Shown: positions 15,322 through 32,982, numbered from the stretch's first letter. The stretch is DNA of 64,000 bases from an uncultured Chloroflexia bacterium (GCA_963797095.1 CAWCNY010000004.1:192001-256000), one strand, 5' to 3'. Made by a program: numbers and translations. Notes: generated from the letters alone by a model not told the origin.

Positions 15322-15762
15322 ATGGAAAAGGCTAAGTACCGAGCATACCTGTGTTGCGGGCCGAACTGCGGACCGAAAGGAGCATCGGCGCTAATTGACT
15401 TCCTGGAGGCGGAGCTTGCCCTGCGTGGATTGGAAGAGGTAGTAAGCGTGGCGGCGACAGGGTGCCAGGCACATTGCGAGAGCGGACCAACTATGGTGGT
15501 GTACCCTGGGCCGGTGTATTACCAGGAGATCGACCGGGTACGGCTGGTTCGCATTATTGAAGAGCACCTTGTGTTGGGCGGGCCGGTCAAGGAGTATTTC
15601 TGGAGTGGGGTGCGTAAGAGGATTTTGCCCGACGGAAGGGTTATTATCCCCAAGCGTGTAATCATGCCCGAGGATGGTGATGCGTTGCCCAGCGCTGAGC
15701 AGGTCATACGGAAGCGCAAGGCAAAGAAGCCGCCACCGGAAGTTGACGATTTCAAGTGGTAG
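15322..15762 (+). CDS. thioredoxin-like [2Fe-2S] ferredoxin
   Basis: CCGPNC ... TGCQAHCESGPTMVVYP ... IIEEHL pattern. Confidence 0.85.
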   Translation: MEKAKYRAYLCCGPNCGPKGASALIDFLEAELALRGLEEVVSVAATGCQAHCESGPTMVVYPGPVYYQEIDRVRLVRIIEEHLVLGGPVKEYFWSGVRKRILPDGRVIIPKRVIMPEDGDALPSAEQVIRKRKAKKPPPEVDDFKW

Positions 15763-16792: not shown

Positions 16793-17162
16793 TGAGCGCA
16801 GTGTCCACCGCCCGCTCTGAGAGGCCCCAGATGAAGATCATTCCCAGGCCGTAAAGCATTGACTCGCGCACCGTGTTGCTGCCCCTGGTGATGGCAAAGA
16901 TCCCAGGGATGGTGAGGACGATTGAGATGCCGTAGAGGAGGTGCAACCAGCCGCGAGCAGGCTGAAGGCCGGCCAGGACGAGCACCATGCCCACTATCCC
17001 TTGCAAAATGAAGAGGCCCACACCGATAGCCAGAGCGCCATTGTAGTTACCATCCGGAGGTTGACGCCGCAGAAAATTGAACAGCCCCCAGGCACCTACC
17101 AAAAGGGCATAGATAGCGATCATGTTCGAGAATGTCCGGTGAATATCAATGAGCCACTGCAT
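16785..17162 (-). CDS. small 4-TM membrane protein
   Basis: four hydrophobic segments; WLHLLYG motif. Confidence 0.75.
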   Translation of the reverse strand: MQWLIDIHRTFSNMIAIYALLVGAWGLFNFLRRQPPDGNYNGALAIGVGLFILQGIVGMVLVLAGLQPARGWLHLLYGISIVLTIPGIFAITRGSNTVRESMLYGLGMIFIWGLSERAVDTALNG

Positions 17163-17270
17163 CTACCACAATCTACCACAGGGCCCTGGGGCTGTCAATG
17201 AGATTGTGATTAAATTTGCACAGTCTTCCACTTGCAGTATAATGTGATATGGGGAGTTGAGGAGTGTGCG

Positions 17271-19193
17271 ATGAAAATTGACCGCGCTGCTTTGACGACA
17301 GACCTTCCCGGGGCACAACTTCACCGTTTGGTGCCGAAACGCCTGGCACGTTTGCTCATGCGCGACGGCGCGCCCTCGATTGATGGCCTCGATGTGGCGA
17401 TCAGGGGCTTCGGGGTGGCGATTGTGGTCCTGTGGTCCCTGCTTGGATATGCACGGGCCTCAGAAGCAGCTGCCTGGGAGATGGCCGATCCGTTGTGGGT
17501 AGCACTTGGCCTGATTGTCTACAACCTGGCGGTAATTCTCGCTATCGGGGTGCCGTGGCGCACATCGCCGGGTTTCGGGCTTTTCGCGCTCGACTGGGTA
17601 GTGGCATCGCTGGCGATCCTATTCGCCGGAGGGTTTGTAAGCCCATATATTCTTCTCTACTATGCGTTGATCATTGGTGCATCGCTGAGGGTGGGGCTTT
17701 CTCGTTCTTTGTTGCTTGCCACTGGGTGCTCCCTGGTGTTCCTGGTGATGAGTTTGCTCCACCCGGAGCCTGTGGAAGAGATCCGGATCCCGATCCTGAT
17801 CGTGCAGGTGGCATCGCTGCTGATGGCTATGTTCATGGCGACAGGAATGCGCAGGGCTGTCGAAGTAGAAGTGCATAAAGTTGAATTGGAAGAGCGCGCC
17901 GCGCGGCAACTCCGGCTGTTGAATAACCTGACCAACCGGGTGCTGGCCGGGCCGCCTGATCTGCGAGACATCCTGCGAACAGTGGCAGCGGCTTCGCGTG
18001 AAGCATTGAAGGCAGACAGCGGGCTGGCTGTGCTTCTTAATGCGGCTTCGTTGGCCGATGATACGATGGGCGATGAGCGTGATGAGAACCTTGATATTGT
18101 GGCCGACCAGGACCCCGATCCGCCCGTGCTTTCGGGGCAAGAATGGAGCATTATCAAGAGAGTCACAAAGACGCGAGCGCCTGTAGTGTTGAATGTAGAG
18201 GATGGCCAGGCGACTCCATACGCCGGGCTGGAACGAGGAGGGGCACGCGCCCAGGCAGTAGCATGCGTTCCGTTTGTATTGGACGAACGTGTAATCGGAG
18301 CTTTGTTCGTGGCGCGATTTGAGCCACAGGCATTTACGCAGGCTGATGTTGGATTGCTGCTGGCGATCAGCCAACAAATAGCGGTGGCGACGCGCATGGC
18401 TCGCCTGTATGAAATGGAACGCGAGAAAGCCGCCAGATCTGAAGAGCGAGAACGTCTTGAGCGTGATTTGCTATCTATGGTTTCGCATGAGTTGCGAACT
18501 CCGTTGACCTCAATAAAGACAAGTGTGGGGGCGTTGGCTAGCGTACAACCCCATACAGGAACAGGGCGAGAAAAGGCCGAAGCTGAAACGCGGCTGCTGA
18601 GCAATATCGGGCGGAGCACTGATCGCCTCATCAACCTCGTGAATGAGTTATTGGACATGGCGCGACTGCGAGCGGGCAGGGTCAGCCTTAACCTTCAGGA
18701 ATTGAACATGGGAGATCTGCTGCTTGAGGCCGTATCGAGTCTGCGACCGTTGTTCGAGGAGCGGGGCCAAACTACTCAGATCGATCTGCCGGTGCAAGGC
18801 TCGACGCGCTGGGAGTCGCTGATGGTGCAGGCCGATCGCCGCCGAATCGAGCAGGTTCTCGTCAATTTGCTGTCTAACGCGAATAAATACGGACCGGGAT
18901 CGAGTACGGTGGTGATTGGAGCCACGCAGCGCGGAGGGCAGGTCAGAGTGTTCGTGCGAGATGCAGGCCCGGGTATCGCACCACAAGAGCAAGAGAGGGT
19001 GTTTGACAAGTTCTACAGGGCTGGGGAGGGCATGCATGAGGGCGCAGGATTAGGGCTTGCGATAGCGCGCTCGATTGTAGAATTGCATGGAGGGGAGATA
19101 GGAGTAAACAGCAGACCGGGCACTGGGAGCACGTTCTATTTCACGCTTCCGCATGCTAGCATGGAGAGCATTGATGAAGATACTTGTAATTGA
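17271..19193 (+). CDS. membrane sensor histidine kinase (TM region + GAF + HisKA + HATPase)
   Basis: SHELRTPLTS H-box, NLLSNANKY N-box, DAGPGI G1, GAGLGLAI G2; GAF-like CVPFVLDERVIGAL; GAGGAG RBS. Confidence 0.93.
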   Translation: MKIDRAALTTDLPGAQLHRLVPKRLARLLMRDGAPSIDGLDVAIRGFGVAIVVLWSLLGYARASEAAAWEMADPLWVALGLIVYNLAVILAIGVPWRTSPGFGLFALDWVVASLAILFAGGFVSPYILLYYALIIGASLRVGLSRSLLLATGCSLVFLVMSLLHPEPVEEIRIPILIVQVASLLMAMFMATGMRRAVEVEVHKVELEERAARQLRLLNNLTNRVLAGPPDLRDILRTVAAASREALKADSGLAVLLNAASLADDTMGDERDENLDIVADQDPDPPVLSGQEWSIIKRVTKTRAPVVLNVEDGQATPYAGLERGGARAQAVACVPFVLDERVIGALFVARFEPQAFTQADVGLLLAISQQIAVATRMARLYEMEREKAARSEERERLERDLLSMVSHELRTPLTSIKTSVGALASVQPHTGTGREKAEAETRLLSNIGRSTDRLINLVNELLDMARLRAGRVSLNLQELNMGDLLLEAVSSLRPLFEERGQTTQIDLPVQGSTRWESLMVQADRRRIEQVLVNLLSNANKYGPGSSTVVIGATQRGGQVRVFVRDAGPGIAPQEQERVFDKFYRAGEGMHEGAGLGLAIARSIVELHGGEIGVNSRPGTGSTFYFTLPHASMESIDEDTCN

Positions 19194-19881
19194 CGATGAC
19201 CATGACGTGGTCGAGGCGATCAGCCTGGCGTTCGGCCTGCAGTGGGAAGAGGTAAAAGTAGTGCCTGCCTACTCAGGCGTGGAGGCGCAAATGGCCTTCA
19301 ACAGAGAGAATCCAGACGCGATACTTCTGGATATCGCGCTTCCGGATACTGACGGATTCGAGATACTGAGGTGGATACGCGAGCGCTCGGACGTGCCTGT
19401 GCTGATGATTTCGGCCAGGGGCGAAGAGCTGGACAAGGTGCGTGGCCTGGAGTTGGGAGCGGATGACTATGTGACCAAACCATTCGGGTACCTGGAGCTA
19501 TCGGCGCGGATAAAGGCAGTCATGAGGCGTGCGCAGGCGCTGCCGCCAATGTCTGGCGGGGGTAAGTTTGAGTCGGGCGACCTGGTAATCAATTATTCGA
19601 CACACCAGGTTTTCTTGAAGGGGAACCATGTCAAGTTGACGCCGATTGAGTACAAACTGTTGTACCAATTAACGCGTAACGCAGGGCATGTGCTGATGCA
19701 TGACCACCTGCTGACGAAGATATGGGGGCCGGAATACCTGGGTGAATTGGATTATCTGCGCATTTATGTGCGTCGCCTTCGTGAGAAACTAGAGGCAAAC
19801 CCACAGCAGCCGATACAGATATTAACCGAGCGCGGGTTGGGCTACCGCTTTAATCCCCATCCCGGTGACAATGCAGCCTGA
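19174..19881 (+). CDS. OmpR/PhoB-family response regulator
   Basis: ILVIDDD, LLDIALP, GADDYVTKPF; winged helix LRIYVRRLREKLE...TERGLGYRF. Confidence 0.95.
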   Translation: MKILVIDDDHDVVEAISLAFGLQWEEVKVVPAYSGVEAQMAFNRENPDAILLDIALPDTDGFEILRWIRERSDVPVLMISARGEELDKVRGLELGADDYVTKPFGYLELSARIKAVMRRAQALPPMSGGGKFESGDLVINYSTHQVFLKGNHVKLTPIEYKLLYQLTRNAGHVLMHDHLLTKIWGPEYLGELDYLRIYVRRLREKLEANPQQPIQILTERGLGYRFNPHPGDNAA

Positions 19882-21012: not shown

Positions 21013-21087
21013 TATGAAAAATTAACGGAAAATAGGTGAACGTTTGGTGAAAAACACCTAGCCATAGGCAACGTTGTGGGCTATAAT
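21013..21087 (+). promoter_or_regulatory. probable promoter of the respiratory cluster with 11-bp-phased direct repeats
   Basis: TATAAT at 21082-21087 with a weak -35; GGTGAA at 21035 and 21046. Confidence 0.45.
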
Positions 21088-21175
21088 ACCTTGACTGCGA
21101 CGCCTGGCGCACGTGTGTGCCTGCGCAGGCACATTGGCGCAGCCCCAAGGGTCTAGACGTATCGAGGAGGATGGA

Positions 21176-21307
21176 ATGAACCTTACCGAGAACCAGGAAC
21201 CCTTCATAATCTTCCCCGCACTGATCATCGCGATTCTGCTCCTGGTGCTGATCGACCGTATCGGCACGATCCGACCTCCAAAGGACGAAGACGAGGAGGA
21301 GATCTAG
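21176..21307 (+). CDS. 43-aa single-TM peptide abutting cytochrome b
   Basis: GAGGAGG RBS, hydrophobic helix and acidic tail; its stop directly precedes the ATG at 21308. Confidence 0.6.
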   Translation: MNLTENQEPFIIFPALIIAILLLVLIDRIGTIRPPKDEDEEEI

Positions 21308-22195
21308 ATGGCTACACGCTCGCTGCGCGACAGAGGGCGAATACCAAGCCCGGCTGATCTCTATGGGAGGTTACCCGGCTGGATTCGCACACCTTTAGGC
21401 AAACTGGGTGCAGTACTCAAGCGCACCTGGGAAGATGTGTCCGGTTCGATTATCCGGAACGGATGGCCTAACTCGGTGCGTGGCCGTTCCCTGGCGGTCA
21501 TGAACAGCGTATTCTTGCATTTGCACCCGATACGCACCCGCGCCGATGCAATCAAGATGACGTATACGTTCGGCCTGGGAGGGATATCGTTCTTCCTCTT
21601 CCTGTTGCTTACTCTCACCGGCGTGCTGCTGATGTTCTACTATATCCCGTCGGTAGACCAGGCGTGGCAGACCATGAACCAGATCAAGGACGATCAACCG
21701 TTCGGCTGGTTCCTGAGGAACATGCACAGGTGGGGCGCACATGCCATGGTGATTACGGTGTTCTTCCACATGTGCAGGGTGTTTTATACAGGTGCATTCC
21801 GCGCTCCGCGACAATTCAACTGGGTTGTAGGCGTGATATTGCTGGTGCTTACTTTTCTGTTGAGCTACACAGGCTACCTTCTGCCTTGGGACCAGCTTTC
21901 GTTGTGGGCGGTGCAGGTGGGTGTGAACATGGTTGGCTCAACGCCGCCACCGGCTGTTGGTGACTTTGTGAAGTTCATGCTGATTGGAGATTACTCGGTT
22001 GGGCAAAATGCGCTGATCCGGTTCTATACGTTACATGTGATAGCGCTACCGCTGCTGCTATCGATATTCCTGGCCGTTCACTTCTGGCGAATTCGGAAAG
22101 ACGGCTTCTCCCGAGGGCTCACATTTACGTCCAGGATCATGGAGCACGCTGATACACGCACAGCGGGCGAGCGTGCGGCAGGTAGAGGGAAATAG
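21308..22195 (+). CDS. qcrB: cytochrome b6-like subunit (N-terminal, split cytochrome b)
   Basis: GLGG, RNMHRWGAH...HMCRVF, TGYLLPWDQ and RFYTLH...VHF haem-ligand motifs. Confidence 0.93.
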   Translation: MATRSLRDRGRIPSPADLYGRLPGWIRTPLGKLGAVLKRTWEDVSGSIIRNGWPNSVRGRSLAVMNSVFLHLHPIRTRADAIKMTYTFGLGGISFFLFLLLTLTGVLLMFYYIPSVDQAWQTMNQIKDDQPFGWFLRNMHRWGAHAMVITVFFHMCRVFYTGAFRAPRQFNWVVGVILLVLTFLLSYTGYLLPWDQLSLWAVQVGVNMVGSTPPPAVGDFVKFMLIGDYSVGQNALIRFYTLHVIALPLLLSIFLAVHFWRIRKDGFSRGLTFTSRIMEHADTRTAGERAAGRGK

Positions 22196-22206
22196 GAGGC
22201 GCACAC

Positions 22207-23100
22207 ATGGCATCCATTGGCGACCGACTCCCTCAAACGAGGGAACCTAACGTAACAAGCACTCCCGGCGCAAGGGTGTTGACCCCGCCGGCAAGGACAC
22301 GCCCCACAACGCCGGCTGAACAGGAAGCGGGAACTGTACAGGTTTGGCCGCACCTGGTCGTAATCGAATTTCTGGGAGCATTGATCATTACGCTCAATAT
22401 GATCTTGCTGTCGACGCTGTTTAACGGGCCGTTCCTTGATATGGCGAACCCGGACAAGACGCCGAACCCATCGAAAGCCCCGTGGTACTTCCTCAATCTC
22501 CAGGAACTGCTTCTGCACATGAACCCTGCGCTAGCGGGCGTTATTGTACCTACAATAGCCCTGATCCTGATCGCGGCGATCCCCTATGTGGACCGTGGCG
22601 CGAAGGGTTTGGGAGTCTGGTGGTATAGCGAGAGAGGCCCTAAGATCGCGCTGTTCACGGTTGTCTACACTACAGTTGTCACCGGATCACTTATTGCGCT
22701 TGACAAGTTCTTCCCTCTGAAGGCGAACTTCAGCATCTGGCTTCGAACCGCAGATACTCAGGTAGCCGGAGCGAGTGCCGATGATGGACCGCTCTCACCG
22801 ATTACCTACTTCATAGCGAATACCCTTTTCAACGGAGACCATGCGGTGGCACTGGGTGTGCTGCAAGAGGCCATTGTAGGCTGGATCATTCCGACGATCT
22901 GCTTCGCATTCTTTCCAACTCTGCTTGTGATCCTTCTCAAGCGAGTGTTCAAAGGGGCCGACCTCACCGAGATCATAATTGGGCTCTTTACGGGGTTTGT
23001 TACGCTTTATCTGGTGCTCACGTTCGTCGGAACGGCAATGCGCGGCACCAGTATGGACCTTTACCCTCCTTGGGCTTTGCCTCCCAACCAGGAAGGATGA
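22207..23100 (+). CDS. cytochrome b6f subunit IV-like protein (C-terminal part of cytochrome b)
   Basis: WPHLV..E, ANPDKTPNPSKAPWYF (PEWY equivalent), IPYVDR. Confidence 0.88.
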   Translation: MASIGDRLPQTREPNVTSTPGARVLTPPARTRPTTPAEQEAGTVQVWPHLVVIEFLGALIITLNMILLSTLFNGPFLDMANPDKTPNPSKAPWYFLNLQELLLHMNPALAGVIVPTIALILIAAIPYVDRGAKGLGVWWYSERGPKIALFTVVYTTVVTGSLIALDKFFPLKANFSIWLRTADTQVAGASADDGPLSPITYFIANTLFNGDHAVALGVLQEAIVGWIIPTICFAFFPTLLVILLKRVFKGADLTEIIIGLFTGFVTLYLVLTFVGTAMRGTSMDLYPPWALPPNQEG

Positions 23101-23187
23101 CCTGGGACAAAATCAATAGACGGAAAGAGGAATGCGGAGTAAGAGAACGGTCATCCATGACGGGTCGTCGGAAAAGAGGAGATAAGT

Positions 23188-23772
23188 ATGCAAAGAATGG
23201 CAGATACAAGACGAGAAACATTGACGCCCAGAACGGGAGTTGATGCGCCAAACCGGCCTGAAGATACGGCGGGTGGGCGCACAGCCCCCAAAACGCGACG
23301 TGACGTGCTGAAGTGGGGCCTATTCGGCTCGCTTCTGCTGATGGTCGGAGGCTTCGGCTATTCCTTCCTTCAGTTCTTTACTCCCAAGAAGGTGGGCACC
23401 TTCGGTGGCAAAGTAACAGTACCGATTACATTGGCCGATCTTCCGGTCAATAGCGATCCATTCAGGGTCCGCGAGGGGAAGTTCTATCTCGTGCATATCC
23501 CTGAAGGATTGCTCGCTCTCTACTGGAAGTGCAAACACCTGGGATGCACGGTGCCCTGGAAGCCGGACGAGGAATTTCAGGGACAGATCGGCATTTTCCA
23601 CTGCCCGTGCCACGGCTCGATCTACCTCAGGAACGGGCAAAATGTGGCTGGACCGGCCCCCGCGCCGCTTGACCTGATGGCGATTGACCTTTCAGGCGGA
23701 AAGATCGTGGTAGATACAGGTAAGATCACCACTAGAACCAGGTTTGAGCCTTCACAGGCCGTCAAAGTCTAG
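23188..23772 (+). CDS. qcrA: Rieske [2Fe-2S] protein
   Basis: Tat-like TRRDVL plus TM helix; CKHLGC and CPCHGS boxes; GPAPAPL. Confidence 0.95.
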   Translation: MQRMADTRRETLTPRTGVDAPNRPEDTAGGRTAPKTRRDVLKWGLFGSLLLMVGGFGYSFLQFFTPKKVGTFGGKVTVPITLADLPVNSDPFRVREGKFYLVHIPEGLLALYWKCKHLGCTVPWKPDEEFQGQIGIFHCPCHGSIYLRNGQNVAGPAPAPLDLMAIDLSGGKIVVDTGKITTRTRFEPSQAVKV

Positions 23773-23881
23773 AACTGAACACAAAAGCCGGGCAAAGGGT
23801 TGAAGTCCGGCAGCATATACCTGGCGGTCGTTTTTCGGTCGCCCGTCGCGGATTGTGTGAGAAGCAGGAGAGGGAGAGGCT

Positions 23882-24754
23882 ATGCGTGACAAAGTAGTGC
23901 TGGGTGTAACCCTTGCCATCGTGCTGCTCTTGACGTTGGTGATCTACGGAATCGTAGATACCCAGCGCACTCCGAGCCTCCAGGCCTCCGACCTGGAGCG
24001 TATGGTCGATAAGGGGCAGACGATTTACGCGCAATACTGCATTCAATGCCACGGGCCGAGAGGCGAGGGGTGCATTGGTCCTGCGCTGAATCGAGAAGTC
24101 TGGCATCCGGAACTTGCAAATGGAGATAAGAACACCAATTTTGATGACGCCAGCCACGATTTCATCAAGAAGGTCGTAGAGCGTGGCCGCCCTTCGAACC
24201 AGCCTGGTATGCAAATGCCCTCATGGTCGATAAATGAAGGCGGCGCACTGAACGATGAGGATATAGAAGATGTCATCGCGTTCATACAATACGGCAACTT
24301 CGACACCACGTTGGAAGATGCCGCATCCGCAACGGGATTGAACGAGGCATTCCCCACATTTCCGGGATTCCAGGACACAGCACAGATCGCTCGCGTGAAG
24401 GAAGTAATGCTGGCAAAGGGATGCCTAAACTGCCACACTCTGGGCAAGGGTGGCGGTAAGATAGGCGCTGACCTGACCGACGTGGGCAGCAGGCGCACAG
24501 CCGATTGGATCCGTAAGTGGATCGACAATCCGCCCGCCGTGCCGGCTTCGCAGCGTGGGCCTAATCTGTGGCTTGTGGGTGTGACGGCGACAGTGCCGGT
24601 GCCTGGATTGACGCCCCAGGCCAACACCTCTCCTACGGCGACGCCGCAGCAGTTCCCGATGAATACTACTTATATGCCCAAGATCGCTATGACCCAGGAC
24701 GAGTTGAACTTGCTCGTGGACTATCTCTCGCACGCGCGTACGACCACCAAGTAG
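23882..24754 (+). CDS. membrane-anchored dihaem c-type cytochrome
   Basis: N-terminal TM; CIQCH...MPSW and CLNCH...MPK. Confidence 0.92.
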   Translation: MRDKVVLGVTLAIVLLLTLVIYGIVDTQRTPSLQASDLERMVDKGQTIYAQYCIQCHGPRGEGCIGPALNREVWHPELANGDKNTNFDDASHDFIKKVVERGRPSNQPGMQMPSWSINEGGALNDEDIEDVIAFIQYGNFDTTLEDAASATGLNEAFPTFPGFQDTAQIARVKEVMLAKGCLNCHTLGKGGGKIGADLTDVGSRRTADWIRKWIDNPPAVPASQRGPNLWLVGVTATVPVPGLTPQANTSPTATPQQFPMNTTYMPKIAMTQDELNLLVDYLSHARTTTK

Positions 24755-24781
24755 CAACCAGGGATCAGGAGGAAGAGCTAT

Positions 24782-25669
24782 ATGGCCGCTCTGGGTGCGG
24801 TAGTCAAGAAGACCGAGGAAGGGCTGCGTTTGACAGCTAAAGGGCGTGCGCTGGCTATTTTCAGCGTGGTGCTGATACTTGGATTCGCGCTGGCGACGCT
24901 CAATGTACCGCTAGCATCGTCGGCGGCCAATGCTGTGGAAGTGCAGCATATAACTCAGGCCGTGCCTACCGACCCCCAATCGCCGCTGTGGGACCAGGCT
25001 ACGGAAGCGCAGATACCGCTGAGCGCACAGCAGATGCAACAGCCCGGTGGTGGAACCACCCGGGCCGTGTATGTGCGGGCACTTGAAGATGGCATGACTT
25101 TCGCGATCAGGGTTTCATGGGACGATGACACTAAGAACGAGACTGTCGGAAGCCTACCGAGTGATGCGGCGGCTATTCAATTGCCAATCGACCCACAGCA
25201 TCTCCCCTATCAGTGCATGGGGCAGAGCACCAGCCGGGTAAATATCTGGCAGTGGAAGGCAGCACTGGAGAAGGAAGCCGGTGAGACGCTGCCGACCACG
25301 GGAATGGAAGGGGGAGCGAGAGACCTGACGAGCAACGGGATCTGCAAGGCTGTCGAAACGAATGGCATAGGACCATCAGCCAGGTCGTATCACGACGGCA
25401 AGCAATGGCATGTTGTGTACTGGCGGCAACTTTACAAGGGAGACCTGGTCACAGCGCCAATAATAAGGGAGGCCAACACTTCTATTGCCTTCGCGGTGTG
25501 GAACGGAGCCAACGGCGAGACGCGCGGGATGAAAGCAGTCTCAACCTGGAACACATTAACGTTCCAAACGCCACCTGTGAACAGCGCCGCCGGACTGGTA
25601 ACAGTGGCAGCCGTTGTGCTCGTTTCAGCTGGAATCGTAGGCTGGGCCATGCGACGCTATGGCAGGTAG
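24782..25669 (+). CDS. EbdC/DOMON-type haem b-binding protein (ethylbenzene dehydrogenase gamma-like) with N- and C-terminal TM segments
   Basis: SWDD, DAAAIQLP, CMGQ, VNIWQWKA and FAVWNG...KAVSTW motifs of this family. Confidence 0.8.
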   Translation: MAALGAVVKKTEEGLRLTAKGRALAIFSVVLILGFALATLNVPLASSAANAVEVQHITQAVPTDPQSPLWDQATEAQIPLSAQQMQQPGGGTTRAVYVRALEDGMTFAIRVSWDDDTKNETVGSLPSDAAAIQLPIDPQHLPYQCMGQSTSRVNIWQWKAALEKEAGETLPTTGMEGGARDLTSNGICKAVETNGIGPSARSYHDGKQWHVVYWRQLYKGDLVTAPIIREANTSIAFAVWNGANGETRGMKAVSTWNTLTFQTPPVNSAAGLVTVAAVVLVSAGIVGWAMRRYGR

Positions 25670-25762
25670 ACAGCAAGCAAGGAGCAATTAACAAGATACA
25701 GACGACCGTAGGCTCAAGACCGGCATCCGTCACCACTCACATTTGACTCATCGGAGGGAGGA

Positions 25763-27247
25763 ATGAGCGTAGTAGCGAGAGAGTTCGAGACCACACGACC
25801 GGGGTTCCTGACTGCCGAAGGCAGCGCATCGCGCAACTTTCTATATTCGGCGATATTTTGGCTTACTTTAGCTGACTTTGTAGGGCTGATCGCGGCGATG
25901 GAGATGATCAGCCCGGATTTCCTGGCAGGCATTCCATATCTGACATTTGGGCGTCTCAGGCCGATGCACACCAACGGTGTGCTGTTCATGTGGCTCTCGA
26001 TGGCCCAGATCGGGGCGTTCCTTTACATTGTTCCGAAGTTATGCGGTGTCAAGCTGTTTAGTGAAGTATTGGGCAATGTGGTCATGATCCTGTGGAACAT
26101 GGTCGGGATCGCCGGATACATTACCCTTTCGCTTGGCCTAACCCAGGCAAGAGAGTATGCTGAGCTAATCTGGCCGATTGATGTCATGGTCCTGGTCGGG
26201 CTACTGCTTACAGGCTACAATATTTACAAGACGATATTCAGCCGCAAGGAAAAGAAACTATACGTTTCTTTGTGGTACATCATGGGCACGCTTGTATGGA
26301 TGCCGATGCTTTACTTCGTGGGAAACGTCATGTGGCAGCCACTATTGCCCAACAGCGATCCCGGCATCCCCAGTCTGCAATCGAATATTGCGGGCTTCCC
26401 GTCAGGGAGCTTGAACGGTATCGACGATGTGACCTGGCAGTGGTTCTATGGGCATAACGTGCTTGGCTACTGGTTCACTACATCGGGGGTGGCTATAGTC
26501 TATTACCTTGTGCCGGTCTTGACGCGCTCCCCGCTTTACAGTCACCTGCTATCATTGATTGGGTTCTGGTCCATTGCCTTCTTCTACGGGTTGGTAGGCC
26601 AACACCATATCCTGCAAACGCCAACGCCAGGCTGGCTTAAGACGCTGGCTGTAGTTGGCTCGATCGGCCTTTTTATTCCAGTCTTTACGTTCCTGACGAA
26701 TATCTGGCTCACGATGAGGGGCAACTGGGGGAAGATATACGAAAGTCTGCCACTCAAATTTGTGATGGTGGGCAGTATCTTCTATTTCGTGACGTGTGTG
26801 CAAGGCCCTATGCAGGCGATTCAGGGATTCAACCGCCTGATCCACTTCACCAACTGGATCGTTGGACATGCTCATCTGGCGCTGCTCGGCACGTTCTCGT
26901 TCTGGGCCATGGCGGCTATCTACTATATCATTCCGGTTACCCTCAAGCGCAGGATATATAGTCCGGGGCTTGGTGAGGCCCAGTTCTGGATGATAACAAT
27001 CGGCTTCCTCTTGATGATGATCTCACTGCAAATAGGTGGCCTTGTACAGGGTGCAATGTGGCTCAACGGCGACACGGTGTACAAGGTGCTGCCCGAACTT
27101 AAGCCTTATCTGGTTATCAGAGCCGTGTCGGGCGCAATGATAGTGATTGCAGGGATTATGCAGGCCTGGCAGATATACAAGACTGTGACAGTGGGTGAGC
27201 CGATCACCGTGAAAAGCCCGGCAACCGCAGCAGAATCGATTAGCTAA
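25763..27247 (+). CDS. ccoN: cbb3-type cytochrome c oxidase subunit I
   Basis: FGRLRPMHTNG, REYAELIWPID, WFYGHN, FY..VGQHH (CuB) and WIVGHAH. Confidence 0.95.
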   Translation: MSVVAREFETTRPGFLTAEGSASRNFLYSAIFWLTLADFVGLIAAMEMISPDFLAGIPYLTFGRLRPMHTNGVLFMWLSMAQIGAFLYIVPKLCGVKLFSEVLGNVVMILWNMVGIAGYITLSLGLTQAREYAELIWPIDVMVLVGLLLTGYNIYKTIFSRKEKKLYVSLWYIMGTLVWMPMLYFVGNVMWQPLLPNSDPGIPSLQSNIAGFPSGSLNGIDDVTWQWFYGHNVLGYWFTTSGVAIVYYLVPVLTRSPLYSHLLSLIGFWSIAFFYGLVGQHHILQTPTPGWLKTLAVVGSIGLFIPVFTFLTNIWLTMRGNWGKIYESLPLKFVMVGSIFYFVTCVQGPMQAIQGFNRLIHFTNWIVGHAHLALLGTFSFWAMAAIYYIIPVTLKRRIYSPGLGEAQFWMITIGFLLMMISLQIGGLVQGAMWLNGDTVYKVLPELKPYLVIRAVSGAMIVIAGIMQAWQIYKTVTVGEPITVKSPATAAESIS

Positions 27248-27302
27248 GCAGATTGAGGTTTCAGCAACCGGATAGCAAGTACGCATCACGAAGGGAAACG
27301 CC

Positions 27303-28355
27303 ATGCACCAACAGGGTGGAGCTGTATTCAGGATGGACCCACGCACCGTGTTTATCGGAGCGCTGATAGTCTTCGCATCAATTATCTTCGTCGTCACCAC
27401 GCTTCCATACCTGACTTTCAACCCGCCACGCTCGGCGGACGCCCGTCCACTGACGGAGCAAGAGGAGCGAGGACGGCGGTTGTACGCGTCTAATGGATGC
27501 TTCTACTGCCACAGCCAGTACCTGCGTCCGCAGGACTGGACGGGGGTTGGTTCCTACCGCACCACAGGGCGAACCGCGCAGGCTGGTGACTACTTCTTCC
27601 AGGAAACCCCTATGCTTGGGACTGAGCGCACAGGCCCTGATCTTTCACAGGAAGGTGGGGTGCATACGGACGAGTGGCATCTAGCGCACTTCTATAACCC
27701 GCGCTGGACTTCGGTGAAATCGATCATGCCTGAGTTCAGTTTCTACTATGATCAAAACCTGGCAGGTGGAATCACTCCCAGCCAGGACGTATACGATCTT
27801 GTCGCATATGTCCAGAGCCTGGGAGGACAATCGGGCGTGGATCGCGCCAATCTCCAGCGCGAGCGGAAACAGACTTTGCTCGATGAGCGGGCTAAAGGCA
27901 ACGATGCGATCATTCACGACTACTTCCCCGCAACATGGCGCACTGTCCGTAACCCCATTGAGCCTACTATTCGTTCGTTGGTGCATGGGAAGCAGGTGTT
28001 CACCACCAACTGCACTGGATGTCATGGGCTTAATGGGGATGGCAAGGGTCCGGCGACGTATTTCATCAATAACCCCGCGCCGAGGAACTTCACCGATGCG
28101 AGCGCACAACTGTTCTTCAGCGATGGCGAACTATATGACGCGATCTTGAGGGGAGTTGACGGCACTGCAATGCCCGCATGGGGCGATATGCTTACCGTGA
28201 ACGACATCTGGGATGTGACCAACTTCATAAGAACAATCCCGAATGGTGGGCTACAGACCAATGACCTTGATGCCTCAATGATGATCAGCCCACCCGATAT
28301 CGTACCAATAGAGGCAACACCGGCTGCAACGCCAAGCGTGAATCCAACTCCATAG
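27303..28355 (+). CDS. ccoO: cbb3 oxidase subunit II (CcoO) fused to a second cytochrome c domain
   Basis: GCFYCHSQYLR, GTERTGPDLS, WHLAHFYNPR...SIMP, YVQSLG; then CTGCHG...AMPAW. Confidence 0.92.
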   Translation: MHQQGGAVFRMDPRTVFIGALIVFASIIFVVTTLPYLTFNPPRSADARPLTEQEERGRRLYASNGCFYCHSQYLRPQDWTGVGSYRTTGRTAQAGDYFFQETPMLGTERTGPDLSQEGGVHTDEWHLAHFYNPRWTSVKSIMPEFSFYYDQNLAGGITPSQDVYDLVAYVQSLGGQSGVDRANLQRERKQTLLDERAKGNDAIIHDYFPATWRTVRNPIEPTIRSLVHGKQVFTTNCTGCHGLNGDGKGPATYFINNPAPRNFTDASAQLFFSDGELYDAILRGVDGTAMPAWGDMLTVNDIWDVTNFIRTIPNGGLQTNDLDASMMISPPDIVPIEATPAATPSVNPTP

Positions 28356-28381
28356 GCGAAACGCAGAAAGAAGTAGGTAAT

Positions 28382-28816
28382 ATGAACAGGATCAAACAGC
28401 AATTAGAGCAAATGAGCGGTGCACGGATTGTGCTGATAGTGGGGGTACTTGCTCTCGCACTGGTGCCTGCGCCGGCTTTCGCCCATGATAACCTGGGCGG
28501 CGACGAGCTGGCGGTCGCCAACTGGATGTTCGTGGCTGCGGTGGTGACAATCGCCCTTGGTGCTTTGTGGGCTTTGTGGGCGATCAGATCGGGGCAGTTC
28601 AACAACATAGAGCAATCCAAGTACACGATGCTGGAAAATTCTGAGGATTACGATGCAATTATGGCCGAATATGACGCAAGGGAAATAGCGGCAAAAGAAG
28701 CAAGCAGCCCGAGTAAGACGAACGCGAAAGTGGCACCCGGCGCACCCGTGCAGCCTGACGCAGCCCCCACGCGAAATACGACTGGCACCACTAGCGGTAA
28801 AACCGCCAACGCGTGA
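28382..28816 (+). CDS. CcoS/FixS-like cbb3 maturation protein with an N-terminal signal-like extension
   Basis: TM ending LWAIRSGQFNNIE resembles the CcoS WA..SGQF.D.E motif; AFA-H cleavage-like site. Confidence 0.7.
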   Translation: MNRIKQQLEQMSGARIVLIVGVLALALVPAPAFAHDNLGGDELAVANWMFVAAVVTIALGALWALWAIRSGQFNNIEQSKYTMLENSEDYDAIMAEYDAREIAAKEASSPSKTNAKVAPGAPVQPDAAPTRNTTGTTSGKTANA

Positions 28817-28837
28817 CGAGAAAGAGGAGAATAGAGA

Positions 28838-29134
28838 ATGTCATTCCCAAATCCCGGCGACCTCATAAAACCCTGGTCATGGAACATCGTTCTAGAAGGG
28901 GTCGTGTGGTTCATTGTCCTTCTATTAACTGTCGGTGTGATAACCTGGACCCGCGCAGGTCGCGATAGGCGGAACCTGCCTGATCAATTGGGACGTAATG
29001 TAGAAGATTTCGCCGGAATTACCCAGGAAAGTAATGGGCGGCTTCCGGGTTTTCTGCTGCTGTTCTATCTGGTGGTGGGGCTGTTCATGCTCGGCTACCC
29101 GATTGTTACTCTCATCTTCAATTACAACTACTGA
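28838..29134 (+). CDS. 2-TM protein resembling the haem-less N-terminal anchor of CcoP (FixP_N)
   Basis: EDFAGITQESNGRLPGFLLLFY resembles H.YDGI.E.DNPLP.WW..LF; AGAGGAG RBS. Confidence 0.6.
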   Translation: MSFPNPGDLIKPWSWNIVLEGVVWFIVLLLTVGVITWTRAGRDRRNLPDQLGRNVEDFAGITQESNGRLPGFLLLFYLVVGLFMLGYPIVTLIFNYNY

Positions 29135-29195
29135 CAATAGGTATCATACGTGGGATAACGCATCTTATGCGATAGATCGCGACGGAGCAATGACG

Positions 29196-29513
29196 ATGGA
29201 ACAGGAAACTCGGCAGCTACAAAATGAAATTCAGGTTGCACACAGGTTTCGGGCAGTAACCGAGCACGAACCACTTTATGGACTTGCACCGGAGCCAGGG
29301 GCGGGCGGACCTGAGAGCACAGGCGACCCGGATCAGCCACTGCGCGAAGTGCCGGTGGAGGAGCCGGAAGCGCCCGGGGAGGAGAGCACGAACCTGACAT
29401 GGGGGATTGTGTTCGGCGGGGTGCTGCTCCTTTTTCTGCTGGTAGCGGTGCTCTATTTTGGGATCGGGAATACTTATTCAACCCAACCCTTCACTTCATA
29501 CCCTCTGAAGTAA
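29196..29513 (+). CDS. small single-TM protein
   Basis: GGAG RBS; acidic, Pro-rich N-terminus followed by a TM helix. Confidence 0.55.
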   Translation: MEQETRQLQNEIQVAHRFRAVTEHEPLYGLAPEPGAGGPESTGDPDQPLREVPVEEPEAPGEESTNLTWGIVFGGVLLLFLLVAVLYFGIGNTYSTQPFTSYPLK

Positions 29514-29537
29514 ACCGAAAAGCACTCAGGAGCTAAC

Positions 29538-29852
29538 ATGTCAGTAGTTAGAACAATGTCGTTTACCGTCCCGTCAGAGCGCAAGCACGAGCTCAATCCC
29601 GGCCATAATCTCTATCTTGCGGCGGTGCATGGGACACAGTCTGCCGCCCAGAGCGTAGACGGGTACCAGAAGGGCGGGGTGTGGATGCAACGCCAGGCAG
29701 ATGGCTCGGTGAGGGTGTCGATGTTCTCGCAATTCGACGAGTTGGACAATATGGAAAGGTATGCGAATGTACCAATGATCCGTGATTTTGAGAAAGATGT
29801 GACGACATACCTCAGCCCTGTCGATGTTAACGTTTATGAGGTGCTCGGGTAG
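29538..29852 (+). CDS. small dimeric alpha/beta-barrel (ABM-like) protein
   Basis: AGGAG RBS; 104 aa with ferredoxin-like pattern (V..M.F...DGY......V..FSQF......VYEVL). Confidence 0.6.
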   Translation: MSVVRTMSFTVPSERKHELNPGHNLYLAAVHGTQSAAQSVDGYQKGGVWMQRQADGSVRVSMFSQFDELDNMERYANVPMIRDFEKDVTTYLSPVDVNVYEVLG

Positions 29853-29914
29853 TTTATATGTACACAGAAGCCGGTTTGTAGCTGTCTGTGTCCTAAGAAA
29901 GCAAGGTCATACTA

Positions 29915-30109
29915 GTGTTTGGATTCGCCCAATGGGATAGCCCCTTTTCTCTTGTAATCGAAGCAGGTATTTCTGCCCTACTGATCGCAGGATTGCTTGT
30001 CGTGGTGCGGCGCGTGAATGCGCAGGCAGAAGCCGAACGACGCGACAAAAACGATGCAATACAGCATGATGCACTAGAAAGCAGCACAAACAAGCAGAAT
30101 GATCAATAG
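29915..30109 (+). CDS. small single-TM protein
   Basis: 64 aa, one hydrophobic helix, overlaps the next ORF. Confidence 0.45.
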   Translation: MFGFAQWDSPFSLVIEAGISALLIAGLLVVVRRVNAQAEAERRDKNDAIQHDALESSTNKQNDQ

Positions 30110-30647
30110 TATAACGGGCAACCCACGCATAAGGCTGGGTGTATATATCCTGCTTGGTTTTCTCACGTTGGTGATGGTCGCATTGTCAGTGGTCCAACTT
30201 TGGGTCCTGTATAGCACAGAGAATGTGCCAGCCTACGGGAGCATCCAGGCCGACAGCAGGGGTTGGCCGCCCGATAGCGAGCGAGGTGCATTCCTCATAC
30301 TGAACGATCAGCACAGTTCAGAGTACGCGGGAAACCTCGTAGAATTGCTGGCAGTGACCGATCCCGGCGTGATTGATGAGGAGAGCGGCGCGCACTTGCT
30401 GCCGTCGGAACTCAAGTCCATCTTGATCCAATCGGTGGCATTGAATGAACCATCGGACTACCGGGTCGAGAGGCTAGGCGACCCGGAACCTGACGAGATG
30501 GAGTTCGATCCGCAGCCCGGCGGCACGGTAATGTTGATCGCTCCAAAGACGGGGGTTTGGAAGCCGGGAGCTTATATTGTTGACATTCCGGTTGAAGGGA
30601 TGGATGCAGGCAGAACTTATTTTCAGTTCTATGTAGACGAACAGTAA
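30099..30647 (+). CDS. membrane-anchored protein with an acidic, beta-rich extracytoplasmic domain
   Basis: N-terminal TM; C-terminal WKPGAYIVDIP...YFQFYV is Ig-like. Confidence 0.65.
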   Translation: MINSITGNPRIRLGVYILLGFLTLVMVALSVVQLWVLYSTENVPAYGSIQADSRGWPPDSERGAFLILNDQHSSEYAGNLVELLAVTDPGVIDEESGAHLLPSELKSILIQSVALNEPSDYRVERLGDPEPDEMEFDPQPGGTVMLIAPKTGVWKPGAYIVDIPVEGMDAGRTYFQFYVDEQ

Positions 30648-30657
30648 GGGGTCTTTC

Positions 30658-32634
30658 ATGGCGACAATTACGGTTGGAAGCGCCGTCGGTGAAGGCAAGG
30701 CGGTCACAGCGACGGGGCAGCCGCCCGGCCAGGTTAATGAGGAGACAATTGACAACCACGGCCTGCCCAGATTTTTCTTCGCAGCGGCCGCAGCCCTCAT
30801 TCTCAGCGCGACACAAGGAGTGGTGCAAAGGTTACCGGGTATCTCCGATTGGCTGAATGACGCTGATTACGGCGGCCACATGGTGACGAACCTGGCGCAT
30901 ACTCACATCACGATTGTGGGAGCGGGCACTATCAGTTTGACGGGGTTGATCTATTACGTGTTGCCGCGTGTCACAAAGAGGCCACTGTTCAGTCCTGCCC
31001 TGACTAACATATCGTTCTGGGCCACCGTCATTGGAGTGTTCGGGTTCTATATTGCCATGCTTTCGATTGGTATATACGAGGGAATGATGGTCCACGCGGG
31101 TTGGGCGTACGACGCGGCGCGAGATTGGATGGGCGCATGGCACAAAGCACCGATGGCACTGACGGCAGCTGTTATGGGCATAGGGTACTGGACATTTGTA
31201 ACGAATGTATACGTGACCGTTGGGCAGGCATCTGGAGAGCGCAAGATATGGCCTGACAAAGGGCCCAGCAATGGAGAGATGTTGCTGGCCAGGTTCTTCG
31301 TAGTGGGGGCGACGGGGCTGCTGTTCGGCACGGTGCAGGGAGTTTACCAGGTGATGCCCTGGTCGCTTGATTGGCTTCAGAAGACAGGCGACGCGGGCCA
31401 CATGATCGATCCGATGGCACACGCGCACATCAACCTGGTGGGTGGCGTGAGCGTAGCGTTGATGGGGTTGCTCTATTTCTTCATTCCGAAGATAATCGGC
31501 AAACCCATTTACAGCATGAAGCTGGGGGTTTTCAGTTTCTGGTGCATATTGATTGGGGTATTCAGCTTCTATTTCACCGCCATAGGGCTTGGCTGGAGCG
31601 AAGGGCAGATGGTGCTGGATCAAGGAATAACGCCTGTTGAAGCGCAAGCGGCAATGGGCATCTGGCACCCGCTACTGCTTAGTGTCGCCGCAAGCATAAT
31701 GGGGATTGGGTTCTGGTCGTTTATCACGAACATCCTGCTGACGCTAAGGCAGAAAGCCGCGCCCGATGCACCTCCTGATCATAAGCTTTCCGGATTCCTG
31801 GCGTTCAGCGCATTCGCGATTCTCGCGGGAACGATCCAGGGCGTGCTCCAGACCCTGCCGGCCATTGATGAGTGGCTGGAAGAGGCCAACCCGGCGGGGT
31901 ACTTCGTCACACCGCTGTCTCACGCACAACTGAACATGGTGGCTTTCGCCATAATCAGCCTTAGCACACTTATGATCTTCTTACTGCCACGGATACTTGG
32001 CAAACCGGTGGCTGACCCGGTGAGGGGCAGGCGCGCTCTAACGGTGATGGCAGTAGGGATCGTCGCGTCCTATCTAGTCTATTTCGGCCTGGGATTGCTG
32101 GAAAGCATCCAGATACACAACGGACTTACGCCTGCCGAGGCGCGCGAGGCCGTGGCAGGCACAGTGCTGCGTTATGTGCTCTTGATAGGGGCGCAGGGGT
32201 TGCTCGGCGTGGGGTATGTGCTCCTATTCAGGCATGTTTCCTCGGAAATTGGTGCGGAGACAATCCGGGCGTATTTCAGCAAGCTGGGCGGGAGAATGGC
32301 AAGCGCGCTACGGACGAGCGTACGCGTGCACCCTCGTGCGCGGACCGATTCTCCAGTTGTTGCGCTTCGCAGGGGCATCGCCTCGGCATTGCTGGAGTGT
32401 GTGTTCCTCGGCCTGGGGTGGTTTTACAGCGGCAGGCCGTTCATCGGGATAATGATGTTCAGTATTGGCACTATCTACCTGACGATTGTGTATGTAGTAA
32501 TCGCAATCGCAGGCAATGGAGGGCCATTCCTTTCGCTCGGTCTGATATATCTCTCAATGGTGCTGGCGAGCGCTATCACGTGCTACCGGACGTATCTTTT
32601 CTCGGTGCGCGAGGAAAGACCAGAGCCTGCATAG
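30658..32634 (+). CDS. haem-copper oxidase subunit I homologue built from three tandem CcoN C-terminal 4-TM units plus a C-terminal TM2-like domain
   Basis: Three QG..Q..P...W...HxH/HxQ...P....KP units (HTH at 30898, HAH at 31420, HAQ at 31921) align by eye to CcoN QGPMQ...GHAH...IPVTLKRRIYS; no HH CuB motif. Confidence 0.8.
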   Translation: MATITVGSAVGEGKAVTATGQPPGQVNEETIDNHGLPRFFFAAAAALILSATQGVVQRLPGISDWLNDADYGGHMVTNLAHTHITIVGAGTISLTGLIYYVLPRVTKRPLFSPALTNISFWATVIGVFGFYIAMLSIGIYEGMMVHAGWAYDAARDWMGAWHKAPMALTAAVMGIGYWTFVTNVYVTVGQASGERKIWPDKGPSNGEMLLARFFVVGATGLLFGTVQGVYQVMPWSLDWLQKTGDAGHMIDPMAHAHINLVGGVSVALMGLLYFFIPKIIGKPIYSMKLGVFSFWCILIGVFSFYFTAIGLGWSEGQMVLDQGITPVEAQAAMGIWHPLLLSVAASIMGIGFWSFITNILLTLRQKAAPDAPPDHKLSGFLAFSAFAILAGTIQGVLQTLPAIDEWLEEANPAGYFVTPLSHAQLNMVAFAIISLSTLMIFLLPRILGKPVADPVRGRRALTVMAVGIVASYLVYFGLGLLESIQIHNGLTPAEAREAVAGTVLRYVLLIGAQGLLGVGYVLLFRHVSSEIGAETIRAYFSKLGGRMASALRTSVRVHPRARTDSPVVALRRGIASALLECVFLGLGWFYSGRPFIGIMMFSIGTIYLTIVYVVIAIAGNGGPFLSLGLIYLSMVLASAITCYRTYLFSVREERPEPA

Positions 32635-32719: not shown

Positions 32720-32748
32720 TTGACTTCGTGCCTAGGCACGTGTATAAT
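32720..32748 (+). promoter_or_regulatory. sigma70-type promoter with a palindrome in the spacer
   Basis: TTGACT-17 bp-TATAAT; the spacer contains the perfect palindrome CGTGCCTAGGCACG (32727-32740). Confidence 0.7.
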
Positions 32749-32835
32749 CACGCAAATGCCAGGAACGCGCCCATGCTCGAGGCTGTTGGGCAGCGGCTCC
32801 GCAATTACCAACTCTTACGCGTGGAGGTGCTAAAA

Positions 32836-32982
32836 ATGGTCCAAGCTTACTGCGTCAAGGATCGAAAGATGGTTGAGATGAAGAATCCGAGGGAGATCAC
32901 CCTCAAGAATGGGCGCCCGGCCATGCAAGGCGAGTGCCCGCATTGCGGGACCAAAGTCACCCGCATCGGTAGCAGCAAATAG
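32836..32982 (+). CDS. DUF5679-like small basic zinc-ribbon protein
   Basis: AYCVKD..VEMKNP..ITLKNGRPA.QG.CP.CGTK..RIG; GGAGGT RBS; followed by a GAGCGCCCC/GGGGCGCTT hairpin. Confidence 0.8.
   Translation: MVQAYCVKDRKMVEMKNPREITLKNGRPAMQGECPHCGTKVTRIGSSK

Follow-up and report, generated by a model that had tools for sequence, protein, structure and literature searches.

How is quinol oxidation connected to O2 reduction in a Chloroflexia bacterium whose genes for a Rieske/cytochrome b complex and for a cbb3-type oxidase lie side by side in one cluster? We examined this cluster in a stretch of 64,000 nucleotides (nt) from an uncultured Chloroflexia bacterium (GCA_963797095.1 CAWCNY010000004.1:192001-256000), here called the window, which belongs to a 6.02 Mb genome in 8 contigs that is 93% complete (G000; the window is G000:C4:192001-256000) and whose nearest public relatives are soil metagenome-assembled genomes (MAGs) labelled Chloroflexia or Chloroflexota. 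The original prediction, made from the sequence alone, described 15 open reading frames (ORFs) as one self-contained module for a menaquinol-to-O2 supercomplex with its own accessory subunits. All 15 are present on the + strand between 21176 and 32634, with spacing, calculated from the coordinates, that ranges from an 11-nt overlap to 109 nt, and the identities given to them are borne out by Pfam and NCBIfam matches, ligand residues, and transmembrane (TM) and haem motifs. The best-supported account is that two gene sets have been joined, in a lineage-specific manner, into one respiratory branch, and that the oxidase set is an autonomous clade. We consider it rather likely that the two sets form one menaquinol-to-O2 branch with membrane-bound carriers and that the product of the last gene, tri658, is an oxidase-dedicated, cofactor-holding helper of the catalytic subunit CcoN.

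Synteny divides the cluster into two modules, A (21176-25669) and B (25763-32634), with the following genes (Pfam and NCBIfam matches in brackets; protein lengths in amino acids, aa).

21176-21307, + strand: 43-aa peptide with a single TM segment; the ORF is open from a GTG at 21113
21308-22195, + strand: cytochrome b, b6-type N-terminal half, 295 aa (PF00033, E 1.2e-44)
22207-23100, + strand: subunit IV-like protein, 297 aa, at least 5 TM segments (PF00032, 26.6 bits; cut-off 20.7)
23188-23772, + strand: Rieske [2Fe-2S] protein (PF00355, 28.9 bits)
23882-24754, + strand: membrane-anchored dihaem cytochrome c, with an N-terminal TM segment and CxxCH at 53 and 181
24782-25669, + strand: EB_dh (EbdC/NxrC-like) haem-b protein, TM segments at the N- and C-terminus (PF09459, 75.4 bits; cut-off 33.3)
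25763-27247, + strand: CcoN, catalytic subunit of a C-family haem-copper O2 reductase (PF00115, 303 bits, E 4.2e-90)
27303-28355, + strand: CcoO with a C-terminal monohaem cytochrome c domain (FixO, E 1.4e-27; Cytochrom_C, E 1.1e-18)
28382-28816, + strand: p144, CcoS/FixS-like, 144 aa, 2 TM segments (PF03597, 23.1 bits, exactly the cut-off)
28838-29134, + strand: p98, 98 aa, 2 TM segments, possibly FixP_N-like; homologues in 39 loci
29190-29513, + strand: 107-aa protein with a C-terminal TM segment; homologues are 102-107 aa in most of 28 matching loci
29538-29852, + strand: p104, 104-aa soluble protein without TM segments, dimeric alpha/beta-barrel (ABM/Dabb)-like
29915-30109, + strand: p64, 64-aa peptide with a single TM segment; homologues in only 10 close loci
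30099-30647, + strand: p182, 182 aa, TM anchor and immunoglobulin (Ig)-like beta-sandwich ectodomain (AlphaFold2 model, predicted local distance difference test score, pLDDT, 83)
30658-32634, + strand: tri658, 658-aa triple-repeat non-catalytic homologue of subunit I (COX1 match, 91 bits in 3 stretches), with units at residues 30-200, 201-372 and 373-560, followed by a 2-TM C-terminal module

Using an alignment of the 658-aa family, we fetched 79 loci from species-representative genomes, in which 119 stretches encode a relative, and mapped the 15 window proteins on these loci by tblastn. The genes for CcoN and for CcoO with its cytochrome domain (CcoO-c) lie upstream of tri658 on the same strand in all 50 loci with at least 6 kb of upstream sequence. 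Among the 46 loci with at least 9.4 kb upstream, 17 also carry cytochrome b, subunit IV, Rieske, dihaem c and EB_dh in the full order, which is kept down to 37% tri658 identity; one more locus, L021, is cut by a contig end. Because the full order recurs in 17/46 loci and the oxidase half in 50/50, the arrangement is beyond chance, and the expectation that the gene order is conserved elsewhere holds, since the full cluster is kept as a unit in the window's own lineage. The other part of the picture is that 28 of the 46 loci, labelled Chloroflexia, Ktedonobacteria, Anaerolineales, Caldilineaceae, Thermomicrobiales, Actinomycetota and, in a few cases, Proteobacteria, carry the oxidase half with its accessory genes and have genes other than the bc/EB_dh half upstream of ccoN. 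Thus, the cluster is not one indivisible unit. The universal core consists of CcoN, CcoO-c, the CcoS-like protein and tri658; p98, p104 and p182 reach a middle clade, and only close relatives have p159 (the ORF originally given as 29034-29513), p64 and the first TM peptide. In a sample of 401 Chloroflexota genomes, strong tri658 matches (E 1e-97 or better) are present in four, G000 included, and the other 74 matches are weak and fall on ordinary subunit I genes.

The oxidase core has the residues expected of an active enzyme. Against solved CcoN chains of cbb3 oxidases, the protein scores E 5e-72 to 1e-59 (9g6b_A, 5.1e-72; 3mk7_A, 1.7e-68), and its nearest non-oxidase match is NorB of the cytochrome c-dependent nitric oxide reductase (cNOR; 4xyd_A, E 1.1e-9). 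Its HTN, GHN, Y..HH and GHAH motifs align with 9g6b_A and account for six His ligands, of which two serve haem b, one haem b3 and three CuB, and for the helix-VII Tyr; among 16 members of the CcoN clade, H69, H231, Y275, H281 and H282 never vary, and at least 90% retain H369 and H371. Since these ligands and the Tyr align with solved CcoN and stay conserved, the oxidase looks competent, and by sequence it belongs to a divergent clade. CcoO-c has one TM segment and CxxCH motifs at 66 and 237. The cluster holds no gene for a dihaem CcoP, and no CcoQ, CcoG, CcoH or CcoI is found near the oxidase genes; we read the extra c domain on CcoO as a replacement for CcoP. In a second Chloroflexia clade (L041, 1912-6990), ccoN lies between two genes for CcoO-cytochrome c fusions (371 and 383 aa), and a 359-aa protein of no family is encoded between the first of these and ccoN. 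Two further loci have interrupted ccoN homologues: the one in L071 (5709-7082) has, at the ORF coordinates used, an internal stop at codon 310, which is an assembly error in this MAG or a pseudogene, and the one in L069 (4460-5959) has a stop at codon 16, probably from a start placed too far upstream.

Module A has the components of a quinol oxidase. Cytochrome b is split, with the N-terminal domain on one gene and the C-terminal part on a separate subunit IV, which makes it b6-type, and it contains both His pairs (140/154 and 243/258); among NCBIfam models, ExtP fits it best (278.6 bits, below the cut-off of 290), and the cytochrome b6 model scores 197.6 bits. The Rieske protein has both cluster-binding boxes (CKHLGC and CPCHGS) and a 'TRRDVLKW' stretch just before its hydrophobic segment. 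The dihaem cytochrome c is matched by PF00034 in two stretches and by PF13442, with weak NCBIfam matches to QcrC and CcoP. The 43-aa peptide that opens the module has no family match in Pfam or NCBIfam, and tblastn places homologues of it immediately 5' of cytochrome b in 12 loci.

The last protein of module A matches the structure chains of NxrC from Kuenenia (7b04_C, E 1.9e-15) and EbdC (2ivf_C, E 2.5e-9). Its M146 and K251 do not vary across 15 sequences; in the alignment they fall on 'MG' and 'RK' of 2ivf_C, whose Met and Lys we take to be the haem ligands. It scores 122.8 bits against TIGR03477, below the cut-off of 169.85, and it is the sole EB_dh match in the whole genome. No molybdopterin alpha subunit, Fe-S beta subunit or other molybdoenzyme gene is found in the cluster or in the flanks scanned (8049-43170). 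The close EB_dh homologues listed all come from the same Chloroflexia/Chloroflexota MAG lineage or from unlabelled metagenome sources. Within the class, EB_dh is found in 50 of 201 genomes sampled, among them 21 of 25 from its own genus, all genomes of two families of the same order (5/5 and 9/9) and, as more distant matches, 14/16 of a further family, and in none from the remaining families of the sample; these tallies include four unpublished genomes (G013, G031, G133 and G097), without which they are 46/197, 18/22 and 8/8.

The product of the last gene is the least expected member of module B. The three four-helix units of tri658 are pairwise 39%, 28% and 32% identical (E 1e-43 to 1e-25). 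Units 1 and 2 match CcoN best on helices IX-XII (E ~1e-9) and more weakly on its second and first thirds; for unit 3, no match is significant. An AlphaFold2 model (pLDDT 85; predicted template-modelling score, pTM, 0.80) aligns co-linearly with the CcoN chain 8smr_E, residues 25-532 on 8-461, over 428 residues with a Z of 33.3 and a root-mean-square deviation (rmsd) of 3.0 Å; cNOR follows with Z 30-32 and A-family subunits with Z 25-28. The whole 12-helix subunit-I fold is thus predicted to be retained. Compared with subunit I of the CcoN and NorB type, the modelled likeness lies in the co-linear 12-helix fold (Z 30-33, rmsd 3.0-3.5 Å, 420-438 residues) and in an HxH on the second helix of the unit, whereas tri658 differs in having units that are still 28-39% identical, two extra C-terminal helices and free-standing single-unit relatives.

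Across 16 tri658-family sequences, down to 31% identity, 69 columns are invariant, and the invariant TM His are four: H83, H255, H257 and H422. They sit on HxH positions that in CcoN bind haem b3, haem b and CuB. In HMMER alignments the helix-X ligands of haem b3 and haem b are matched by H255 and H257; H257 is also matched to the helix-VI His of CuB. The helix II haem ligand has its counterpart in H81, which varies (H/Q/Y/L/F), and an invariant Gln, Q424, stands at the second helix-X His position, so that the usual low-spin haem pair is missing. The third helix of every unit lacks His in the window sequence, and none appears there among the invariant columns, leaving no helix-VII His pair; neither the CuB His pair nor the active-site Tyr is present. 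Therefore, tri658 is not an oxidase. The reading of the gene as a ccoN copy in decay was rejected as well, given the intact frame, about 118 homologues, presence in 119 species genomes and the 69 invariant columns. Public annotation (PGAP, IMG) names such proteins 'cbb3-type cytochrome c oxidase subunit I', a label that inflates oxidase counts in metagenome surveys.

Relatives of a single unit also occur as separate genes. Searching tri658 unit 2 against 1.84 billion representative proteins gave 260 matches at E up to 0.001, many of them proteins of 160-231 aa that span exactly one unit, most with an HAH motif. One 90%-identity cluster of single units has 16 members of 184-189 aa on contigs of up to 3.29 Mb; this cluster, the long contigs and the flanking ORFs in the loci rule out contig-end fragments. 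In Pfam and NCBIfam, single units match only the last third of COX1 or ccoN, with no dedicated family. In a maximum-likelihood tree of units, for which 6 of 16 triple-repeat alignment rows were left out and in which the root is not settled, units R1, R2 and R3 of the tri658 family are each monophyletic (support 100/99, 88/88 and 95/99) and one single-unit subgroup joins them in a group (94/88) that lies within the other single units; the third unit of CcoN is a long branch beside divergent single units. By its unit sequences, the family would fit triplication of a single-unit gene before the triple-repeat proteins diversified.

The genomic context of single units was examined in 80 metagenome loci, 41 of them of at least 6 kb. 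A single-unit gene lies directly upstream of ccoN (36% identical to that of the window) and ccoO in 12 loci, a CcoG-like polyferredoxin is encoded in 23/80, and an FGE-sulfatase-like gene in 20/80. One locus, L130 (5241-12004), contains a FixO-like monohaem cytochrome, two different single units flanking an FGE-like gene, and CcoG with a FixG_C domain, and no full-length ccoN in its 16 kb; L125, L126, L129, L132 and L133 are metagenome clusters of the same kind. Such clusters could encode a haem-copper-type system that is split or novel, or else serve as a biogenesis island. Among the triple-repeat proteins themselves, P0125 (L082:10001-12541), from a MAG labelled Alphaproteobacteria, carries a C-terminal SCO1/SenC domain (E 1.5e-36) with its CxxxC intact.

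The original prediction gave the module accessory subunits of its own. Several of these look more like assembly factors, namely the CcoS-like p144 and, through its SCO1 and CcoG links, the triple-repeat family. The five small window proteins encoded between p144 and tri658 match no family. CcoS itself is about 50 aa long; p144 has 144 aa and an extra TM segment relative to it. It scores 16.4 bits against TIGR00847 (cut-off 28.35), the FixS Pfam cut-off is reached in 5 of 13 homologues scanned, and homologues occur in 56 loci. The suggestion that p98 resembles a CcoP anchor finds a trace in its homologues, 2 of 13 of which give a sub-cut-off FixP_N match, and none in the window protein. For the 107-aa protein, which has no family match in the profile scan, the earlier start at 29034 is replaced: the ORF from 29034 overlaps the upstream gene and homologues are 105-107 aa long, so 29190 is the likely start. 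p104, with homologues in 45 loci, has Atlas matches to ABM clusters at 0.93-0.96, and weak Dabb and ABM matches appear in 10/23 and 9/23 homologues, respectively. Pfam matched none of 14 p182 homologues at E up to 1, and the Atlas scores of p182 are only about 0.80; the best Foldseek matches of its model are to CopC/PcoC, though weak (E 7e-3). In 8 loci, the triple-repeat protein carries p182 as a C-terminal fusion. A YtkA-like match (E 1.2e-4) considered for p182 was discarded, as it belongs to a separate neighbouring ORF in L041 (9230-9922), which precedes the triple-repeat gene.

We also examined the rest of the genome for partners. The statement that the window contains no ccoG/ccoI-like genes is upheld. 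Genome-wide, at 93% completeness, there is no match to Fer4_18/CcoG and no convincing match to FixH (only 22 bits inside a 763-aa frame); all 8 P-type ATPase matches lie outside the window, and a SCO1 gene is present elsewhere. A futalosine-pathway marker is over its cut-off, which makes menaquinol a plausible donor; MenD is below its cut-off (81.6 vs 244.2 bits), so the classical menaquinone pathway is not shown.

With TM anchors on the dihaem c, EB_dh and CcoO-c, and with the futalosine marker, the predicted menaquinol-to-O2 path through membrane-anchored carriers is plausible. Module A would act as a b6-type Rieske/cytochrome b quinol oxidase with a small TM peptide, whose outward-facing acceptors would be the anchored dihaem cytochrome c and the anchored EbdC-type haem-b protein. 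Electrons would pass from the Rieske protein to the dihaem c, to the EB_dh haem b, or to both, and on to the c domain of CcoO and the CcoO haem c; from there they would reach haem b and then haem b3/CuB, with no soluble carrier. Module B would be a cbb3-type O2 reductase with its own biogenesis and accessory set, made up of the CcoS-like protein, the small TM proteins, the ABM-like soluble protein, the Ig-like ectodomain protein and tri658. Compared with cbb3 oxidases with CcoNOQP and CcoGHIS (3mk7 of Pseudomonas stutzeri, 6xkw of Rhodobacter capsulatus), it is alike in the CcoN ligands and Tyr, the CcoO haem-c subunit and the CcoS-like protein, and differs in the c domain on CcoO that replaces CcoP and in the extra conserved p98, p104, p182 and tri658.

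Within this set, tri658 would hold haem b or copper on the His pairs H83+H255 and H257+H422 and would load or stabilise CcoN, as a mimic of its own target that serves lineages without CcoG and CcoH. Read from sequence, a dedicated role in cofactor loading or stabilisation of CcoN is close to an even call, falling slightly short of one; it is favoured over a dihaem subunit because biogenesis proteins are what the family is fused to and lies beside, and because the canonical CcoG and CcoH are absent. Some metallochaperones look like their target or go together with it, such as CCS for SOD1, Bacillus CtaG, CopC-CopD/YcnJ and SCO1/SenC. tri658 is like these in being a membrane protein with conserved His that has an Ig-like, CopC-like ectodomain or SCO1 as a partner or fused to it, and unlike them in that no sequence relationship to CtaG or CopD was found.

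A number of observations weigh against this account of the branch and its helper. CcoN stays below the NCBIfam ccoN cut-off (TIGR00780, 317.6 vs 583.15 bits), and the Qo motif of subunit IV is APWY, not the canonical PEWY, in the window protein and in 19/19 homologues. The oxidase half without the bc/EB_dh half in 28/46 loci means that the coupling of the modules is lineage-specific, and it could be regulatory only. Since an A-family oxidase and two further cytochrome b genes are encoded in the genome as well, partners could be shared, and the cluster is one branch of respiration and not the whole chain. For tri658, the placement of its two His pairs in two of the three pores of subunit I, which has pseudo-threefold geometry, comes from symmetry reasoning and not from coordinates. 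The SCO1 fusion is a single case among 79 loci, and a single-unit gene amid structural genes fits a subunit as well as a chaperone. p182 has a VIA Z of 7.7, tied with unrelated Ig-like domains, as in a generic fold match, and it has no conserved His or Cys and none of the CopC metal ligands.

Could all 15 products instead form one stable, obligate bc-cbb3 supercomplex, in which the small proteins and tri658 are structural, as in actinobacterial bcc-aa3? The tight co-oriented cluster, the anchored dihaem c with its weak QcrC match, the lack of an encoded soluble carrier and the presence of the solved bc1-cbb3 supercomplexes 6xkw and 8smr among the structure matches all fit such an assembly. QcrC relays electrons in actinobacterial bcc-aa3 (QcrCAB and CtaCDEF; 7qho and 6adq among the structure matches), and both systems have a dihaem c and no soluble carrier; we assume that the envelope of this organism is single-membrane. 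The cluster described here differs in its split b6-type cytochrome b, its C-family oxidase, the added EB_dh protein and the placement of all genes in one cluster. Proteobacterial bc1-cbb3 (8smr, 6xkw) likewise pairs complex III with a cbb3 oxidase, but has an unsplit cytochrome b, cytochrome c1, and CcoP or the membrane cytochrome cy as links, and its bc1 and cbb3 genes lie in separate operons. Against an obligate supercomplex stand the autonomy of the oxidase half in 28/46 loci, the likeness of p144 to the assembly-factor family CcoS, and the SCO1 and CcoG links that point to biogenesis. We regard it as a serious contender that is nevertheless unlikely.

A separate alternative concerns tri658 alone, which might be a redox-active dihaem-b subunit of the oxidase, serving as an extra site of electron entry or storage and possibly facing quinol. 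Four invariant His at subunit-I haem-ligand positions in a fold modelled to keep all 12 helices would suit this role, and so would the 12 loci with a single-unit gene directly upstream of ccoN, and L130, where two single units accompany a CcoO-like cytochrome and no full CcoN. However, both sites, placed by homology, would lie at equal membrane depth, so no transmembrane electron transfer is expected between them, and the fusions and neighbours of the family are copper or assembly proteins. We know of no quinol-site motif for tri658, which also counts against such a subunit, and our estimate for it is correspondingly low.

The two modules may also be mere neighbours, with the Rieske/cytochrome b and EB_dh genes feeding another acceptor and the oxidase receiving electrons from other donors. 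In Sulfolobus, SoxL2N-CbsAB is a Rieske/cytochrome b module with an EbdC/DOMON-type haem-b protein in place of cytochrome c1. In the nitrate reductase cluster of haloarchaea (Haloferax), the gene for the EbdC-like Orf7, a proposed relay, stands beside that for the bc-type cytochrome b NarC, as here, and both are discussed as electron donors (PMC8301774). The archaeal systems feed nitrate reductase or an archaeal oxidase, whereas the present one is bacterial, has an extra dihaem c and lies beside cbb3 genes. The separation of the modules in evolution speaks for independent roles. Set against this are the flanks, which hold no molybdoenzyme or other acceptor gene between 8049 and 43170, and the EB_dh protein, for which the genome has no second copy; in addition, 17 loci with tri658 identities as low as 37% share the order, and only 93 nt separate the modules, with no strong terminator-like site inside. 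Neighbourhood without coupling is quite improbable. Finally, a nitric oxide reductase or other non-O2 enzyme, for which cNOR as the nearest non-oxidase relative could be cited, is rejected on active-site residues, since the three CuB His and the C-family Tyr are conserved and CcoN matches CcoN 60 orders of magnitude better than NorB, leaving this reading a negligible probability.

The surroundings of the cluster include two further features.

21059-21087, + strand: sigma-70-like promoter match (TAGCCA-17-TATAAT, 10/12) upstream of the first cluster gene
17232-19881, + strand: GAF histidine kinase and OmpR-type response regulator (Pfam), possible regulators of uncertain membership

The promoter match is weak and by consensus only, as the region holds 4 such sites against 8.4 expected from shuffles. 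The best promoter-like match of the region, also by consensus only, is at 32720-32748 (TTGACT-17-TATAAT, 11/12); with the 84-aa DUF5679 gene that follows it (together 32720-32982, + strand), it marks the downstream end of the cluster. DUF5679 and DUF4383 genes lie downstream, and the GAF histidine kinase, the OmpR-type regulator and a glycosyltransferase upstream. The kinase/regulator pair sits about 1.2 kb 5' of the cluster, and the Caldilineaceae locus L079 (1964-4160) has a regulator-kinase pair about 1.4 kb upstream of its ccoN match; the pair could be a regulator that this oxidase clade has conserved. At 15752-17162 (- strand), opposite in direction to the cluster and some 4 kb upstream, a 125-aa ORF with a weak match to COX15/CtaA (haem A synthase; 27 bits, below cut-off) adjoins a 346-aa ORF of no family. 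Farther away, an aldehyde dehydrogenase is split in two ORFs (10239-11189 and 11238-11756, + strand; Aldedh profile positions 1-292 and 311-460), which is a frameshift, a pseudogene or an assembly error.

The architecture had been put forward as undescribed, and our literature searches gave no account of it. Full-text searches, outside whose reach most subscription journals lie, and passages of a recent superfamily survey (PMC11214002) yielded no account of the cluster, of a repeat-bearing non-catalytic homologue of subunit I, or of the single-unit homologues. Pfam and NCBIfam likewise contain no description of tri658. In this cluster an EbdC-type haem-b protein occupies the place expected for cytochrome c1 or f. 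Model Chloroflexia species oxidise quinol through alternative complex III; unlike that route, the cluster would wire quinol oxidation to a high-affinity-type oxidase in soil Chloroflexota. It also defines a widespread cbb3-type clade with a different set of subunits and biogenesis proteins, present in several Chloroflexota classes and in Actinomycetota, with the companion gene in 119 species genomes, and it is relevant to the insertion of CuB and haem in the absence of CcoGHI.

To our knowledge, tri658 is the first protein whose sequence repeats still reveal the three structural thirds of subunit I. Its repeats and the single-unit genes make the long-assumed origin of subunit I by triplication testable by biochemistry and phylogeny. 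More speculatively, tri658 and its free-standing relatives of 160-230 aa may be an undescribed non-catalytic haem-copper branch, in which the four-helix unit is still a gene of its own, probably acting as a homotrimer, and has independently been triplicated again into the 12-helix fold. Such proteins would carry haem or copper on their HxH motifs and serve as target-mimicking insertion scaffolds for C-family oxidases in lineages without CcoG, CcoH and CcoI. We offer this as a tentative idea and think it possible but doubtful; if it is true, the branch would be a living model for the origin of the pseudo-threefold catalytic subunit.

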